Notes: generated by a model not told the origin, from the sequence alone. A stretch of 64,000 bases of DNA from GCF_054482525.1 NZ_CM137006.1, one strand, 5' to 3'; counted from the first letter of the stretch, positions 58,014 to 64,000 are shown. Made by a program: numbers and translations.

Positions 58014-58712
58014 TTACTCGCCCTGTTGGCGTTGCAGTCTTGCTAATACATCCTGGGCGCTACTTTTATTGCTACCGCCTATTCCGGCTTCCGCCAGCTT
58101 TTCATCAAGATCGCGACCGTCTGCGACTTTTTCCAACTGTGCAGCAGCATCCAGGCGAGCCTGACGTTCGGCCTGACGCGTTTGCAGGCGTTTTAAGGAT
58201 TCTGCCGCTGTCGAAACGCTGGAAGATGCGCCAACGGTAGAGGTCGTTACAGCCTGTTGTGCACGCTGCATGGCTTCAGTGGCTTTAACGACTTCCATTT
58301 GCTGCTCAAACTGAGCGATACGCTGCGCTGTCGCTGTAACTGCTTTTTCCACGCCATCACGGGAGACTTCCAGATTCGACAACACTTGCTCTTCAGCGGT
58401 AATGAGATTCTCAAGGCGCGCGATTTCTTCAGCAACTTCGTTAATCAACGACGGATTAACGTTCTTGCTTAACGCTTCCAGCGCACGAGCTTCCAGACTG
58501 GCTTTGCGCTCACGTAAATCTTTCAGCTTATCGTGACTTAATTTCACCCGCGCCAGCAGATCAACGCGAGATTTTCCGGCTTTATCGAGTTCAGCTTTAG
58601 CGTCACGAATATGCTGTTCCAGCATGCGCACGCCCTGGGTTTCTTCAATGGATTCTTCCGCTTGGGAGATAAACGATTTCCCCAGCGTAAATAAACTTTT
58701 TAAAATTCCCAT
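58014..58712 (-). CDS. yjfJ: PspA/IM30-family coiled-coil protein
   Basis: 232 aa; heptad-rich, Ala/Glu/Gln/Arg-rich coiled-coil. Confidence 0.9.
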   Translation of the reverse strand: MGILKSLFTLGKSFISQAEESIEETQGVRMLEQHIRDAKAELDKAGKSRVDLLARVKLSHDKLKDLRERKASLEARALEALSKNVNPSLINEVAEEIARLENLITAEEQVLSNLEVSRDGVEKAVTATAQRIAQFEQQMEVVKATEAMQRAQQAVTTSTVGASSSVSTAAESLKRLQTRQAERQARLDAAAQLEKVADGRDLDEKLAEAGIGGSNKSSAQDVLARLQRQQGE

Positions 58713-58730
58713 AAATACCCGTCCTTGTAA

Positions 58731-59132
58731 TTAGTGTGAATATTCTTCTGTAATTTCAGCCAGATCCAATGCGTTATCTACCAGCGAGGTTATCTCAAGC
58801 AGGATATCTTCAAGAGAAGATTTAAGCGATAACGCCCCGAAAACAATGTAATACTCTTCCTGTTGTACGCTGGAGATCCCTACCGATGACAACGGCATCA
58901 TCTTCTGATTTCTTAATAAGAAGGTATTAAATTCATCTGGATTGCTGATACTACTTACCGGACAAATAAAGGTTTCGATAATCATTTGGCGGGAAGTAAA
59001 TAGAATATTGATTTGCAAATCGCCATAATCATTCATTTTAATAGTTAATGCGTTCTCGCCATTTGTTACATCAATATTTTGTTCAGGTACAGTTTGCAGC
59101 GCCGTCGCCAGCACCAACGGATTCCATGTCAT
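58731..59132 (-). CDS. yjfI: DUF2170-family protein
   Basis: 133 aa. Confidence 0.88.
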   Translation of the reverse strand: MTWNPLVLATALQTVPEQNIDVTNGENALTIKMNDYGDLQINILFTSRQMIIETFICPVSSISNPDEFNTFLLRNQKMMPLSSVGISSVQQEEYYIVFGALSLKSSLEDILLEITSLVDNALDLAEITEEYSH

Positions 59133-59211
59133 ATATTATTCCATATAAATTAAGTTTAAATATTAATAAAATGAATATTTGCAGTACGTAATTATCTTAC
59201 CAGCTAAACAC

Positions 59212-59239
59212 AAAAAAAAAACCATCCAAATCTGGATGG
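59212..59239 (-). terminator. rho-independent terminator (minus strand) downstream of dehydratase gene
   Basis: ccatcca/tggatgg stem with 4-nt loop followed on minus strand by T10. Confidence 0.6.
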
Positions 59240-59323
59240 CTATTTAGAAGAACCAAAAATTTAACGCTATGCATACGATAAAAAATGCGCCAGTCTACAT
59301 ACGCTGACGCTAATGATTAGTCA

Positions 59324-60925
59324 CTACAAGTCTAACGACCGCTTCCACAACATAAAGTCAAACTGTTCAAGTTTGTCTGCCTTCACGACGTAGTCCTTAC
59401 TGGCAGTTTCAATAACTTTTTCAAATAATTCTCTACTCACATCTTCCAGCGGAGTGCCGTCAATCACTGGGCCACAGTCGAAATCAATCATGTCAGACAA
59501 TCGTCTGGCAATCGTGCTGTTGGTGGATATTTTTAACACCGGAACAATCGGGTTACCGGTGGGCGTACCAAGACCCGTCGAGAAGATAACCACATTACAT
59601 CCTGCTGCTACCAATCCGGTTACCGCGTCCACGTCATTGCCCGGAGTACACACCAACGATAATCCACTATCGGGCATCGGTTCAGCGTAATCGCATACAC
59701 TCACAATTGGCGCTCGCCCGCCTTTTTTCGCTGCTCCGGTAGATTTTATTGCGTCAGTAATCAACCCATCCGCAATGTTGCCAAAACTTGGGTTATCCGC
59801 AATGGTGGTATCGAAAAAGTTCGCTGTCTTTTCGTAGCCTTGCATTAGATTGAGGAACTTTTTTTTATCCTCAAGATTAATACAACGCTTAACCATATCA
59901 CCTTCTGCCCCACATAATTCTGGAAATTCTGCTAACCCGGAAGCGCCACCAAGCGTTGTCAACCAGTCAGAAACCAGCCCCATTGCAGGGTTGCCGGAGA
60001 TACCAGAAAAACCATCGGAACCACCACACTTCATCCCCACTTTGAGACAGGAAAGAGGGACCTCTACTCTTTCTGTCGGCTTCACCGCTTTCATTGCCTC
60101 GAAAGTCTGCTGTAAAGCGGTCTGCATCATCCGCTCTTCGCTGTCCCACTCCTGTTGGAGAAAGTAGAGCGCAGGTTTATCAAATTCAGGATTACGTCTC
60201 GCCAGCGCATCCTTAAACATTTTCTGCTGCGCTTTTTCACATCCTAAACTGAATACCGTCATACCGATTACATTCGGATGGTCAGCATAAGCAGCTAATA
60301 CATCGCACATAGTTTCACAGTCTGAAGTTGCACCACCACAACCACTGGTGACCGTAATACAGCGAACACCTTCAATATGCGGGAACATTCTCGCGGTTTC
60401 GATCAGTTCATCGCTACCGGACGTCAGATTAAGAGCAAACTTTTTCAGTGAGTTATTGGTATAACCCAAAGCATCATTCAAAGCATTGGTTAACTTACTG
60501 ACATTACGGTTCTCGCAAAATACCAATGGAAAGACTAACCAGTAACTGGCAGTACCCACTCTGCCATCGTCACGGACATAACCTTTAAAAGTGCGGGTGC
60601 TCCATTCAGAGACATCCGGTGCCTGCCAGTGGTAGGGTTCAACATCCTCCAGTGTGACAGGAGCTGCATAGTGGCGAATATTATCAACGGTAATCGCTTC
60701 TCCCTTAACGATGGGACGCGTGGCCTTGCCAACTGGCGTACCGTACATCGAAACAATGCCATCCAGAGGAATATCTTGCGTCGCAAACTTATGTTTAGCC
60801 TTAACATCAGTTACTAACGTTATGTTGTCGTCATCCCACGAGTACGATTCTCCAGCGTGCAGGTCTTTCAACGCGACAATGAGATTATCGTTACTGTCGA
60901 TACGTAATATTTTTTGCATAATCAT
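59324..60925 (-). CDS. UxaA/GarD-family sugar-acid dehydratase (altronate / galactarate dehydratase-like)
   Basis: 533 aa; N-terminus resembles UxaA (MQYIKIHALDNVAVAL-type SAF region); Cys-rich central region; length between UxaA and GarD. Confidence 0.75.
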   Translation of the reverse strand: MIMQKILRIDSNDNLIVALKDLHAGESYSWDDDNITLVTDVKAKHKFATQDIPLDGIVSMYGTPVGKATRPIVKGEAITVDNIRHYAAPVTLEDVEPYHWQAPDVSEWSTRTFKGYVRDDGRVGTASYWLVFPLVFCENRNVSKLTNALNDALGYTNNSLKKFALNLTSGSDELIETARMFPHIEGVRCITVTSGCGGATSDCETMCDVLAAYADHPNVIGMTVFSLGCEKAQQKMFKDALARRNPEFDKPALYFLQQEWDSEERMMQTALQQTFEAMKAVKPTERVEVPLSCLKVGMKCGGSDGFSGISGNPAMGLVSDWLTTLGGASGLAEFPELCGAEGDMVKRCINLEDKKKFLNLMQGYEKTANFFDTTIADNPSFGNIADGLITDAIKSTGAAKKGGRAPIVSVCDYAEPMPDSGLSLVCTPGNDVDAVTGLVAAGCNVVIFSTGLGTPTGNPIVPVLKISTNSTIARRLSDMIDFDCGPVIDGTPLEDVSRELFEKVIETASKDYVVKADKLEQFDFMLWKRSLDL

Positions 60926-60952
60926 ATTCTTCCAGTCAGATGTTCAATCTTA

Positions 60953-62254
60953 TTAACTGTATGCTTTTGCTGCCTGTTGGCTCTTTTGCAGCAATCCAAT
61001 CAATAATGCGCAGCCGATAGTAATTACAGACAACGCCATCAATCCGGCGATGCTGCTATCCATTGCCCGATCAACCTCAACACGGATAAGAGGAGCAAGG
61101 AACGAGCAGAAAGCGCCCATCGTGGTGCAAAAACCGATCCCCGCAGCCAGTGCCGGACCAGTAAGAAGTTGTGGAGGGAAAGTCCAGAATATTGGCTGTA
61201 CTGAGAGGAAACCAACCGCACTTAAACAAAGTGCACCAATCGCCACAACAGGCCCCGCAAATGCGGAAAGGGCAAGGCCGACAGCAGCAGCCAACATACA
61301 CATAACCGAAATGGCCACACGCCGGGAAGGATTGCGGTCAGCAATTCGCGGAATGTAATAGACGCCAAAAGCAGAGCACGCCCATGGTATTGCCGCGACT
61401 AATGACTGCTTAAAGCCAAGGCTTTCTCCCATCAGCGATGCAACCTGTGACGGAAGGAAAAACATTAAACCATATACTGATATCTGGATGGTGCCGTAGA
61501 TTAATGCCAGATGCCAAACTTTGGCATTTTTCAATGCTGAAATCACTGAACTGGTTTCTGTTTTCTGTCGTTCAGATTCCAGTTGCTTATTCAAAGCGTC
61601 TTTTTCTTCCTGGGTAAGAAATCGCGCTTTCGTCGGATTATCATCAAGGTAGAACCAGGCAAAGATACCAAGCACTAATGCCGGCAATCCCTCAATGACA
61701 AACATCCAGAACCATCCTGGACGTCCCATCCAGCCATGTAGTTCAAGTAAAGCTCCCGATATTGGCGAACCGAGCGTTAACGCCAGCGGCACCCCCAACA
61801 CAAATATTCCCACGACCGATCCGCGAACCTTGTTAGGAAAATAAATGGATGCGAGCAGTAAAATGCCGGGATAGAACCCCGCCTCGCCCAGCCCTAACAG
61901 AAAGCGCAAAATAATAAATTGCGTTTCACTGGTGACAAATCCCGTCATTGCCGAGAGAAGGCCCCAAATTGCAGTTGTAATACTTAACCACTTTTGTGCG
62001 CCGATTTTATTGAGGATCAGGTTAGCTGGAATGCCGAAAAGTGCATAGGCAGCGAAAAATATTCCTGCACCGAGAGCGAATGCCGACTCTGATAATCCAA
62101 TATCCAGTTTCATTGCATCTTTGGCAAAGCCAACATTTACCCGATCAATAAAGGCAACAAAATACATTATGAACATTAAGGGTACTAAACGTTTCCACGA
62201 TTTTTGAATTGCGGAATTCAACAGCGGATTATCGTATTGGGTTATATTAGCCAT
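60953..62254 (-). CDS. ACS-family MFS transporter (hexuronate/aldarate transporter-like)
   Basis: 433 aa; N-terminal FIDRVNVGFA motif typical of ExuT/GudP/GarP-type transporters. Confidence 0.75.
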   Translation of the reverse strand: MANITQYDNPLLNSAIQKSWKRLVPLMFIMYFVAFIDRVNVGFAKDAMKLDIGLSESAFALGAGIFFAAYALFGIPANLILNKIGAQKWLSITTAIWGLLSAMTGFVTSETQFIILRFLLGLGEAGFYPGILLLASIYFPNKVRGSVVGIFVLGVPLALTLGSPISGALLELHGWMGRPGWFWMFVIEGLPALVLGIFAWFYLDDNPTKARFLTQEEKDALNKQLESERQKTETSSVISALKNAKVWHLALIYGTIQISVYGLMFFLPSQVASLMGESLGFKQSLVAAIPWACSAFGVYYIPRIADRNPSRRVAISVMCMLAAAVGLALSAFAGPVVAIGALCLSAVGFLSVQPIFWTFPPQLLTGPALAAGIGFCTTMGAFCSFLAPLIRVEVDRAMDSSIAGLMALSVITIGCALLIGLLQKSQQAAKAYS

Positions 62255-62304
62255 AAATAAATCCTTAGTTCTGTTGGTAAGATATTCTATTTATAGGTTT
62301 TATA

Positions 62305-63198
62305 TTATTTATAATAATCGGTGACAGATAAAATTTCCTGCAATCTCCGGGATTGAATATCATCAAGTATATTAAATGGTGAAGAACACCGTTCTGATTG
62401 AATAACCCCCTTTAACTGAAGGGCTTTTTTGAAAGTGGGAATAAAAGGAGAATTCACGCTGTAAACGGCCATTAGTTGATCGACTATCTGCTGATGCTGC
62501 GCGACTGCAAGTAAATCGTCATTCATGAATGCTTGCATCCAGGAGGCAAAAAATTCAGGGACAATATTGGATAAACCACCAATACAGCCATCTCCACCAG
62601 ATAGTATGTTGTGGGCAAAATTATTGTCATATCCTGCATACACTTCAAAATGAGGGATATTTTTCTTTACGGTATTGATAACCTGCGCAGTATGGAAAGC
62701 ATCAGGGACGGTATCTTTCATACCAATAATATTGGGATACTTATCTGCCAGTCGTAAACAAATCTCTGGTGATACGCTGTACCCGGTTCTCTCCGGGAAG
62801 TTATAAATAAAAATATGAGCCGGGGTTTGGCTTGCAATCGTACTGTAGAAATCAAAAATAGCTTCATCATCCAGAGGGAAATAATAAGGACTGATGATCA
62901 TCACACCATCCAATCCTTGCTCCCAGGCGTAATTGGCCAGTGATATTGATTCATTGACGTCCATGCGACTGGCTCCGGCATAAGCCTTCATATCGCCTCG
63001 GGAAAACTCACTACAGGTTTTAATCATTTGGCGGGCGTTTTCCATATTAAGCGAAAAAAACTCACCAGTACTGCCCATCACAACAAACCCGGACACGTGA
63101 TTTTTAATAAAATCATAAACCTGAGTGTTTTGCTCTGGATCGATTCGCCCTTGTTCATCAAATATGGTGACAACGGGGGTTATGTAACGACTTTTCAT
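62305..63198 (-). CDS. DapA/NAL-family Schiff-base lyase (candidate 2-keto-3-deoxy sugar-acid aldolase or 5-dehydro-4-deoxyglucarate dehydratase)
   Basis: 297 aa; GSTGE motif, YNFPERTGY motif and catalytic-lysine context IGMKDT match the DHDPS/NAL family. Confidence 0.75.
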   Translation of the reverse strand: MKSRYITPVVTIFDEQGRIDPEQNTQVYDFIKNHVSGFVVMGSTGEFFSLNMENARQMIKTCSEFSRGDMKAYAGASRMDVNESISLANYAWEQGLDGVMIISPYYFPLDDEAIFDFYSTIASQTPAHIFIYNFPERTGYSVSPEICLRLADKYPNIIGMKDTVPDAFHTAQVINTVKKNIPHFEVYAGYDNNFAHNILSGGDGCIGGLSNIVPEFFASWMQAFMNDDLLAVAQHQQIVDQLMAVYSVNSPFIPTFKKALQLKGVIQSERCSSPFNILDDIQSRRLQEILSVTDYYK

Positions 63199-63526
63199 GC
63201 CTACCTCATCATAGTTTTATTGTTCATATATACAAACAACGTTTTTAAATACAAACTAAAATGAGTATACCCAACCTCAGAAATGAGTCAAATTTAGCCA
63301 ATCACAGAAGTAATACACATAAGATATTGATATATTTGGAGTAATTATGCAGGGGGCCTGCATAAAAAACAATCACAGTTCTTTTTTTATCCGTTTTATG
63401 ACCAGTATCACGCTAAAAAAGGACTGATGGGGTCAACAGCAGTCAAGGAACGCGAGGGGGTTAATTTACTTGAATTATAATTCTCCCTAGAATGGTGCAT
63501 TACTCATGGTAAGGGAAATAGTCATT

Positions 63527-64000
63527 ATGGAACATAAGCCTACCATCCGGGTGTTAGAGATACTGGAAGCACTGGCAGCGGAGAATCAGGGTGTTTCATT
63601 AACTCACCTTTCGGAAAAAACAGGCATCCTGAAAGGAACGATTTTTCCCATCCTCAAAACGCTGGTTGAACAGCGGTACATCAGTTATGACGCTAATACC
63701 CAGCTTTATAATCTGGGGATCTCCTGCTCGATTCTGTCCCGTGCTTTCCTCGACAGATCGTACTGGTTAAAAATGGTTTACAAAGAGATGAACAACATTG
63801 TCAAAGAGTGCAATGAAGTTTGTCAGATGGGGATCCTGGACGGTGCAGATGTTTTATATATCAATAAGGTGCAGGCGGCACAAACCGTACAACTGGTTTC
63901 ACATATTGGGACTCGTCTGCCTGCTATCTATTCTGCGCTGGGAAAAGCCATTATCTGTGAATACAGTGATCAACAAATTCGGCAACTCTACCCTGACGGT
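63527..64000 (+). CDS. IclR-family transcriptional regulator, N-terminal 158 codons (3' end outside window)
   Basis: ATG at 63527; N-terminal winged HTH typical of IclR regulators; divergent from the catabolic genes. Confidence 0.7.
   Translation, partial: MEHKPTIRVLEILEALAAENQGVSLTHLSEKTGILKGTIFPILKTLVEQRYISYDANTQLYNLGISCSILSRAFLDRSYWLKMVYKEMNNIVKECNEVCQMGILDGADVLYINKVQAAQTVQLVSHIGTRLPAIYSALGKAIICEYSDQQIRQLYPDG

Follow-up and report, generated by a model that had tools for sequence, protein, structure and literature searches.

A four-gene island between yjfI and rlmB

The 3′ end of a 64,000-nucleotide stretch of NZ_CM137006.1 (GCF_054482525.1; the whole stretch is referred to below as the window) carries, in order, aidB, yjfC, yjfM, yjfL, yjfK, yjfJ and yjfI, followed by the genes of an island. 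Next to yjfI lie three minus-strand open reading frames (ORFs) encoding a dehydratase, a major facilitator superfamily (MFS) transporter and a DapA-like protein and then, beyond an A+T-rich spacer of 328 nt, a divergent IclR ORF. A first-pass annotation, made from the sequence of the window, had described four genes of lower G+C content than the core at this place, three of them co-directional and the fourth an IclR gene leaving the window, and had proposed a family for each product. Our ORF calls agree with this layout, profile and homology searches bear out all four families (UxaA/GarD dehydratase, ACS-type MFS transporter, DapA/NAL lyase and IclR regulator), and the G+C content of positions 59240-64000 is 44.2% against 51.1% in the rest of the window. 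Elsewhere in the window, the G+C content of 4.76-kb stretches reaches a minimum of 45.5% (mean 51.2, standard deviation 2.3). The low-G+C zone starts before the true island boundary because core DNA at 58731-59245, made up of yjfI (38.8% G+C) and the spacer between yjfI and the terminator, is already A+T-rich. No structured-RNA match was found in Rfam within 58500-64000. The features of the locus are as follows.

59246 to 64000, no strand: inserted island, continuing for about 380 nt beyond the window (homology stop, junction alignment, PCN033 annotation, G+C 44%)
59212 to 59241, minus strand: intrinsic terminator, native to rlmB and now ending the island operon (9-bp stem at 59241-59220, T run)
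59324 to 60919, minus strand: dehydratase of the UxaA/GarD superfamily, 531 aa from the second ATG, predicted to be of the L-fuconate type (profiles, identities, cysteines, neighbourhoods)
60953 to 62254, minus strand: ACS-family MFS anion:H+ symporter, 433 aa, predicted importer of a 6-deoxy-L-hexonate (L-fuconate) (profiles, identity to YfaV)
62305 to 63198, minus strand: class I Schiff-base enzyme of the DapA/NAL family, 297 aa, predicted 2-keto-3-deoxy-acid aldolase (catalytic residues, relationship to YagE)
63219 to 63237, no strand: candidate IclR operator GTTTGTATATATGAACAAT, 19 nt located after the -10 element and before the dapA-like start codon
63264 to 63291, minus strand: promoter-like site of the catabolic operon, TTGACT-16 nt-TATACT, 10 of 12 consensus matches
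63465 to 63493, plus strand: promoter-like site of iclR, TTTACT-17 nt-TAGAAT, both hexamers in invariant alignment blocks
63527 to 64000, plus strand: IclR-family regulator, the first 158 of 259 codons, cut by the window end (full gene in PCN033, locus L001, 16395-17174)

The K-12 strain J53 has yjfI and rlmB 126 nt apart with no island between them, and the adjacency of the two genes that the first-pass annotation expected from K-12 is correct. Alignment of the junction to that of K-12, a check the same annotation had proposed, indicates that the island has taken the place of about 20 nt that lie, in K-12, from the terminator hairpin to the stop codon of rlmB. Island-free genomes match only the first 113 nt of the query, hairpin included, with homology ending at about 59245, and these 113 nt are conserved in 5,397 genomes. 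The strong terminator placed at 59212-59239 in the first-pass annotation is real, with its 9-bp stem and T run; however, as it lies inside the 113 nt common to island-free genomes, it is the native rlmB terminator, part of the core genome rather than of the inserted DNA, which the operon has co-opted. In island strains, a small hairpin and a 9-bp G+C hairpin shared with the convergent iclR are found 3′ of rlmB.

The chromosome of PCN033 is 100% identical to the region and extends it past the window to the far boundary. In this strain the window end is followed by another 306 nt of iclR and, 76 nt after the end of that gene, by the stop codon of rlmB. The full island, which ends just before this codon, measures about 5.1 kb and holds exactly four genes. 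The first-pass annotation saw no kinase, and this holds for the complete island, whose PCN033 annotation is also devoid of an aldehyde dehydrogenase, integrase, transposase or insertion sequence (IS) element. Low G+C content and a patchy distribution are the classical marks of a mobile island present here; an integrase or transposase, direct repeats and a tRNA site are not, and no terminal repeats of at least 14 nt were found at the island ends. A target duplication, sought in the resemblance of the left hairpin to the small hairpin on the rlmB side, was dismissed as the resemblance is too weak. The locus is absent from K-12, and literature searches found no publication on the E. coli island or paper characterising its operon; the island is uncharacterised in E. 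coli, its parts and logic being all of known kinds.

The catabolic proteins

None of the four island proteins reaches an NCBIfam equivalog cut-off. The dehydratase ORF spans 59324-60925 (533 aa), the RefSeq and homologue start lying at 60919, and its only NCBIfam match is TIGR03248 (GarD), with 221.2 bits against a cut-off of 730.85, a curated threshold on which a GarD identity was rejected. GarD is also the best solved relative of the protein; in full-length alignments, identity is 33% to K-12 UxaA and 29% to K-12 GarD. The 99%-identical cluster P0001 carries PF08666, PF04295 and PF20629 (SAF, GD_AH_second and GD_AH_C), the composition of the COG2721 superfamily. Cysteines 137, 196 and 229 are invariant in all 125 aligned dehydratases, K-12 UxaA and GarD included, and Cys300 is found in 124 of them, the remaining sequence having a gap. 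Four conserved cysteines have been proposed to form the iron site in the UxaA/GarD family (Watanabe et al., PMC6336799). The island protein and its relatives form a subfamily separate from UxaA/GarD, in which about 20 additional residues are inserted after the first conserved cysteine and before the second. We predict from its homologues that the island enzyme is an L-fuconate-type dehydratase, converting L-fuconate to 2-keto-3-deoxy-L-fuconate (L-KDF).

In the DapA-like protein, Lys161, Tyr132, Tyr106 and Gly42-Gly45-Glu46 (the GSTGE motif) are invariant with DapA, NanA, YagE and YjhH, and PF00701 is present (P0121), consistent with membership of the class I superfamily of dihydrodipicolinate synthase (DHDPS) and N-acetylneuraminate lyase (NAL). 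Its best solved relative is YagE (E 1.5e-47, 32% identity). The protein scores 162 bits against a cut-off of 206.15 with the DapA model TIGR00674 and is 24% identical to K-12 DapA; with the KdgD model TIGR03249 it scores 82.3 bits against 373.95, below its own scores with the DapA, NanA and 2-keto-3-deoxygluconate (KDG)-aldolase models. KdgD, DapA and NanA identities were all rejected on these curated cut-offs. Nine copies of the cassette were examined, and none has an aldehyde dehydrogenase alongside the DapA-like protein. The first-pass annotation had left two routes side by side, non-phosphorylative aldol cleavage and a KdgD-like dehydration and decarboxylation. The former is favoured because YagE is the closest solved relative, the KdgD score is low (82 bits where 374 are required) and no aldehyde dehydrogenase accompanies the nine copies. 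The protein is accordingly best described as a predicted retro-aldolase of the YagE/YjhH/FucH type, which would release pyruvate and an aldehyde.

The transporter belongs by homology to the ACS family (TC 2.A.1.14). Its best subfamily model is TIGR00893 (257 bits, cut-off 395), with HpaX also matching, and it shares 51% identity with K-12 YfaV/RhmT along its entire length and 21-27% with LgoT, GarP (24%), DgoT and ExuT.

The regulator and its control region

Matches of the regulator to the NCBIfam models BhcR, KdgR and IclR span the whole protein, all of them under the cut-offs, and the protein is 24-27% identical to YfaX, XynR and YjhI. Its orthologues carry PF09339 and PF01614, that is, the HTH_IclR and IclR_C domains of the family, and the gene is divergent from the operon. 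Both hexamers of the operon promoter are kept in Leminorella, and the -35 hexamer is kept in Morganella. The divergent spacer averages only 69% identity, whereas GTTTGTATATATGAACAAT is identical in E. coli, Leminorella and Morganella. Three Klebsiella species, Sodalis and a Desulfovibrio metagenome-assembled genome (MAG) carry variants of this element, with at most 4 mismatches, directly upstream of their dapA-like gene, the Sodalis variant including the perfect palindrome TTCGTATATACGAA. From this conservation and position we infer that GTTTGTATATATGAACAAT is the IclR operator of a repressor-controlled promoter.

The cassette in other bacteria and the neighbourhoods of its homologues

The order DapA-like gene, transporter, dehydratase, together with an IclR gene, is kept at unrelated chromosomal sites in the following genomes (identities are given for dehydratase/transporter/DapA-like protein/IclR).

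Leminorella richardii: 88/90/81/85%
Morganella morganii: 81/87/71/72%
Klebsiella oxytoca, K. spallanzanii and K. indica: about 70/80/67/57%
Acetobacteraceae MAG: the three catabolic genes in the same order, IclR gene beside them
JGI metagenome contig: same order, IclR gene 5 kb downstream

A decayed copy is found in Sodalis ligni. A scan of species-representative genomes with dehydratase peptide patterns proved too specific, returning 4 loci only.

Dehydratase homologues that have no acid transporter beside them adjoin the upper half of the oxidative L-fucose pathway. Three such neighbourhoods, labelled by locus, were found (bit scores with cut-offs in brackets).

L014, Desulfovibrio MAG: dehydratase 61% identical; IclR regulator, DapA-like protein (54%), FucP (309.8 bits, cut-off 280.4), fuconolactonase-like protein and aldo-keto reductase
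L023, metagenome contig: dehydratase 62% identical; fuconolactonase-like protein (353, cut-off 400), L-fucose dehydrogenase NF052481 (408, cut-off 300), FucP (289, cut-off 280) and a DHDPS-family gene
L018: dehydratase 57% identical; short-chain dehydrogenase/reductase, RhaM-type mutarotase and FucP (294 bits, cut-off 280)

In a neighbor-joining tree of the dehydratases, the L014 and L018 (P0117) proteins cluster with the island protein and that of L023 falls in a neighbouring clade; all three stand apart from a Burkholderiales clade linked to UxaC, K-12 UxaA and GarD being distant outgroups.

DapA-like homologues of Fusobacterium (L015) and Clostridium (L016), 45-48% identical to the island protein, belong to a parallel module that is likewise entered at the acid and comprises an IclR regulator (38-41%), a KdgT-type transporter, a split UxaA (35%), a protein of the FAH family, the DapA-like protein and an Fe-dependent alcohol dehydrogenase. 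In Fusobacterium the latter scores as lactaldehyde reductase (672 bits, cut-off 537). The FAH-family protein of both modules is closest to 2,4-didehydro-3-deoxy-L-rhamnonate hydrolase (160 bits, cut-off 500), and no 4-dehydrogenase is present beside it in either module. A homology search with the large dehydratase subunit of Fusobacterium returned Fusobacterium proteins for 120 of the 120 matches listed.

Two further observations were made around the cassette copies. An enolase-superfamily dehydratase resembling L-talarate/galactarate dehydratase adjoins the cassette in Leminorella (L004, 10450-11550), the Acetobacteraceae MAG (L013, 8850-9995) and the Desulfovibrio MAG (L014, 15020-16159), under the cut-off where it was scored; it may provide a second acid entry into the same aldolase. 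In Morganella morganii (L003, 1-3559), the cassette lies a few kb from a set of genes resembling a cyclic-oligonucleotide-based antiphage signalling system (CBASS), with a SMODS/DncV-like nucleotidyltransferase, ThiF, JAB and SAVED.

Distribution among E. coli genomes

The island was found in 518 of 5,426 complete E. coli genomes, or about one in ten, 512 of which retain it essentially whole at an identity of at least 99.2%. There is one copy per genome, and the insertion site is the yjfI-rlmB junction in the three carriers whose flanks were examined; the annotations of all carriers examined show the four genes intact. Among the carriers are records named ST167, ST1193, PCN033 and O166:H15, which we take to fall in phylogroups A, B2 and D. 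Between three backgrounds (L001, L029 and L030), the island is 99.2-100% identical over most of its length and the flanks (yjf genes and rlmB-rnr) are 96-99% identical; the last kilobase of the island, at the 3′ end of iclR, is more diverged (98.3-98.7%). Because identity between backgrounds is higher in the island than in its flanks, these comparisons are suggestive of an island younger than the lineages that carry it, which would have spread by homologous recombination of the flanks.

In several strains, AW1.7, ECONIH4 and MS 115-1 among them, the island is disrupted by an IS2 element, and one O157:H16 strain has kept only 359 nt of iclR, suggestive of ongoing decay in some lineages. Plasmid carriage was considered and rejected: the three matches in PLSDB (NZ_CP134663.1, AP026530.1 and NZ_CP128951.1) are non-mobilizable entries of 0.66-4.9 Mb that appear to be chromosomal DNA. 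Within L030 (1775-3407 and 10716-11834), the ST167 strain NZ_CP093919 has ulaA and ulaG truncated by deletion, and internal stop codons are annotated in its yjfJ and yjfI, which could reflect either real decay or assembly errors.

Proposed function and alternative explanations

That the island encodes a dehydratase-aldolase route for a sugar acid we consider very likely. It is probably a self-contained, horizontally acquired catabolic cassette, complete with regulator, importer, dehydratase and aldolase, for a sugar acid of the L-fuconate class, and L-fuconate itself is the main substrate towards which, on balance, we lean; D-arabinonate, L-galactonate and D-altronate are possible side substrates. 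The class is favoured because FucP, L-fucose dehydrogenase and fuconolactonase-like proteins neighbour the homologues, because a lactaldehyde reductase neighbours the Fusobacterium homologue, and because the transporter is 51% identical to YfaV. Retention of the cassette at unrelated sites in other taxa, the intact catalytic residues of the DapA-like protein and cysteines of the dehydratase, and the chemistry described for the C. jejuni fuc locus also speak for the proposal. The best reading of the island would then be that of the lower half of the non-phosphorylative L-fucose/D-arabinose pathway, entered at the acid. The first-pass annotation had held that the substrate cannot be read from the sequence; the homologue neighbourhoods and the transporter narrow it to the L-fuconate class, within which L-fuconate is the inferred substrate.

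In the scheme that we propose, the RhmT-like ACS transporter would import the acid, which the presumably iron-dependent UxaA/GarD-family dehydratase would convert to its 2-keto-3-deoxy derivative (L-KDF, if the acid is L-fuconate). The DapA-family class I aldolase, acting through a Schiff base on Lys161, would then cleave L-KDF to pyruvate and L-lactaldehyde; with D-arabinonate as the substrate, glycolaldehyde would take the place of L-lactaldehyde. AldA and FucO are core E. coli enzymes that handle lactaldehyde. The island would need no kinase or dehydrogenase of its own because these two enzymes could dispose of the aldehyde. The divergent IclR protein would bind the conserved palindrome, which lies downstream of the -10 element, and so repress the operon; release of the protein would probably be brought about by the 2-keto-3-deoxy intermediate, by analogy with KdgR and XynR.

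Several observations weigh against this assignment. The link to fucose depends wholly on homologues with 57-62% identity, because the island itself is devoid of FucP, L-fucose dehydrogenase and lactonase, its own transporter not being FucP; and the dehydratase tree was computed without support values. Not all relatives of the dehydratase point to fucose: a Massilia homologue (57%) from the Burkholderiales clade resides in a UxaC-UxaB-GH28-KdgK galacturonate cluster, a context implying altronate as its substrate, and a Budvicia homologue (62%) has only MFS and AraC genes alongside. YfaV is itself a putative L-rhamnonate (6-deoxy-L-mannonate) transporter, and the DapA-like protein shares only 32% identity with the two characterised aldolases, YagE and YjhH. 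Finally, Arg137 of the DapA-like protein, the counterpart of the aspartate-semialdehyde-binding Arg138 of DHDPS, is kept across the cassette clade, Fusobacterium and Clostridium included, and is absent from YagE, YjhH and NanA, an unexpected DHDPS-like trait; more speculatively, it could set this clade apart by mechanism within the DapA family.

A lower yet appreciable probability is given to the same mechanism acting on another substrate of the same or a nearby class, be it D-arabinonate, L-galactonate, D-altronate or an unrecognised deoxy-aldonate, in which case D-arabinonate would yield glycolaldehyde and D-altronate would proceed via KDG to pyruvate and glyceraldehyde. UxaA/GarD enzymes act on acids with the C2-C4 configuration that D-arabinonate, L-fuconate, L-galactonate and D-altronate share, and are promiscuous across it (Watanabe et al., PMC6336799). 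Such a substrate would also suit the galacturonate/altronate setting of the Massilia homologue, the cleavage of 2-keto-3-deoxy-D-pentonate by YagE, to which the DapA-like protein is closest among solved structures, and the fact that the fuc locus of Campylobacter jejuni serves D-arabinose as well. The transporter, however, is far closer to YfaV, of 6-deoxy-hexonate type, than to LgoT, DgoT, ExuT or GarP, FucP occurs in three homologue neighbourhoods with L-fucose dehydrogenase above its cut-off in one of them, and E. coli is already equipped for altronate (UxaA, KdgK-Eda). An aldarate route, with galactarate or glucarate dehydrated and the DapA-like protein serving either as a KdgD-type enzyme that yields 2-oxoglutarate semialdehyde or as a class I enzyme replacing GarL, appears improbable. 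GarD is indeed both the sole NCBIfam match and the best solved relative of the dehydratase, and the conserved Arg137 could bind a distal carboxylate; but the identity to GarD is only 29%, with 221 bits where 731 are required, the KdgD model scores 82 against 374 and below the DapA, NanA and KDG-aldolase models, none of the cassette copies has a semialdehyde dehydrogenase, GarP and the transporter share only 24% identity, and the homologue neighbourhoods are of a neutral-sugar (fucose) type.

Least probable in our view is that E. coli makes no current use of the island, which would then be a cryptic or decaying accessory locus. The island is absent from about 90% of the genomes, IS2 has entered it in several carriers, one strain is left with a short iclR fragment and the Sodalis copy has decayed; against this, 512 genomes keep the whole island with at least 99.2% identity, every carrier examined has annotations of intact genes, the conservation of promoter and operator extends to other genera, and the cassette is maintained as a unit in distant taxa.

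Should the island indeed serve L-fuconate or a close relative, four accessory genes with generic annotations would gain a function and the catabolic repertoire of E. coli a substrate, and the lower half of the non-phosphorylative fucose pathway would be seen as an acid-scavenging module that circulates on its own among gut Enterobacterales. Lineages such as ST1193 or ST167 would differ from relatives without the island in a metabolic trait that can be tested, and pathway engineering would gain a compact dehydratase-aldolase pair and a candidate IclR sensor responsive to a keto-deoxy acid. C. jejuni accumulates L-fuconate from fucose, and L-fuconate is an intermediate of mammalian L-fucose degradation, covered in a review (PMC13406643), a hint that the acid may be exchanged in the gut, whether cross-fed or host-derived. 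It is a more speculative and rather doubtful step to regard the cassette as a dedicated L-fuconate scavenging module that provides certain E. coli lineages, the successful clones ST1193 and ST167 among them, and other gut Enterobacterales, with a private carbon source and an advantage in colonisation.

Comparison with known systems

The dehydratase shares an N-terminal SAF domain, GD_AH domains and the four conserved cysteines with UxaA, GarD and the D-arabinonate dehydratase C785_RS13685 (PMC6336799), from the first two of which (33% and 29% identity) it differs in belonging to a separate subfamily marked by the insertion of about 20 residues between the first two cysteines. The D-xylonate clusters yagEF-xynR and yjhIHG resemble the island in combining a DapA-family 2-keto-3-deoxy-acid aldolase (YagE or YjhH) with a dehydratase, a transporter and an IclR repressor, and in residing, like the island, in accessory or prophage DNA; the IclR repressor of a D-xylonate cluster is reported to respond to the 2-keto-3-deoxy intermediate (PMC13279387). 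They differ in having a dehydratase of the IlvD/Edd family and transporters of a type other than RhmT, and identity is limited to 32% for the aldolase and 24-27% for the regulator.

The K-12 operon yfaX-rhmD-yfaV-yfaU (rhmRDTA) has the same logic, with an IclR regulator, an acid dehydratase, an ACS transporter and an aldolase, no kinase, and transporters that are 51% identical. Its annotation includes a pyruvate-yielding aldolase step; the second product of this L-rhamnonate operon's aldolase is L-lactaldehyde. However, its dehydratase belongs to the enolase superfamily and its aldolase is a class II enzyme of the HpcH type, both non-homologous to those of the island, its regulator YfaX is 27% identical to the island IclR, and the operon, unlike the accessory island, belongs to the core in K-12.

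Compared by description, the closest likeness is to the fuc locus of C. jejuni and to route I of L-fucose/D-arabinose catabolism, which share with the island a divergent IclR gene, an operon starting with a DapA-family gene, a UxaA-family dehydratase and an MFS transporter. The FucC/FucH pathway of Veillonella ratti is reportedly such a route I. In C. jejuni, cj0480c-cj0489 comprises cj0480c (IclR-type FucR), cj0481 (DapA), cj0482/3 (split altronate hydrolase) and cj0484 (MFS) as well as FucX, FucP, a hydrolase, a mutarotase and an aldehyde dehydrogenase; Cj0482/Cj0483 (88 + 389 aa) were assigned the conversion of L-fuconate to L-KDF, the end products being pyruvate and lactaldehyde or lactate (PMC6946681, PMC12566272, PMC9100392). 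A DapA-family L-KDF aldolase was placed in route 1 (Watanabe et al., PMC11199699). The island dehydratase, in contrast to the split C. jejuni enzyme, is a fused protein of 531 aa, and the split type found in Fusobacterium is only 35% identical to it. Relative to route I, the island is without FucP, L-fucose dehydrogenase, lactonase, mutarotase and aldehyde dehydrogenase; as the genes of the upper pathway (FucP, dehydrogenase and lactonase) are missing it can start from the acid only, and in their place it carries an acid importer of its own.

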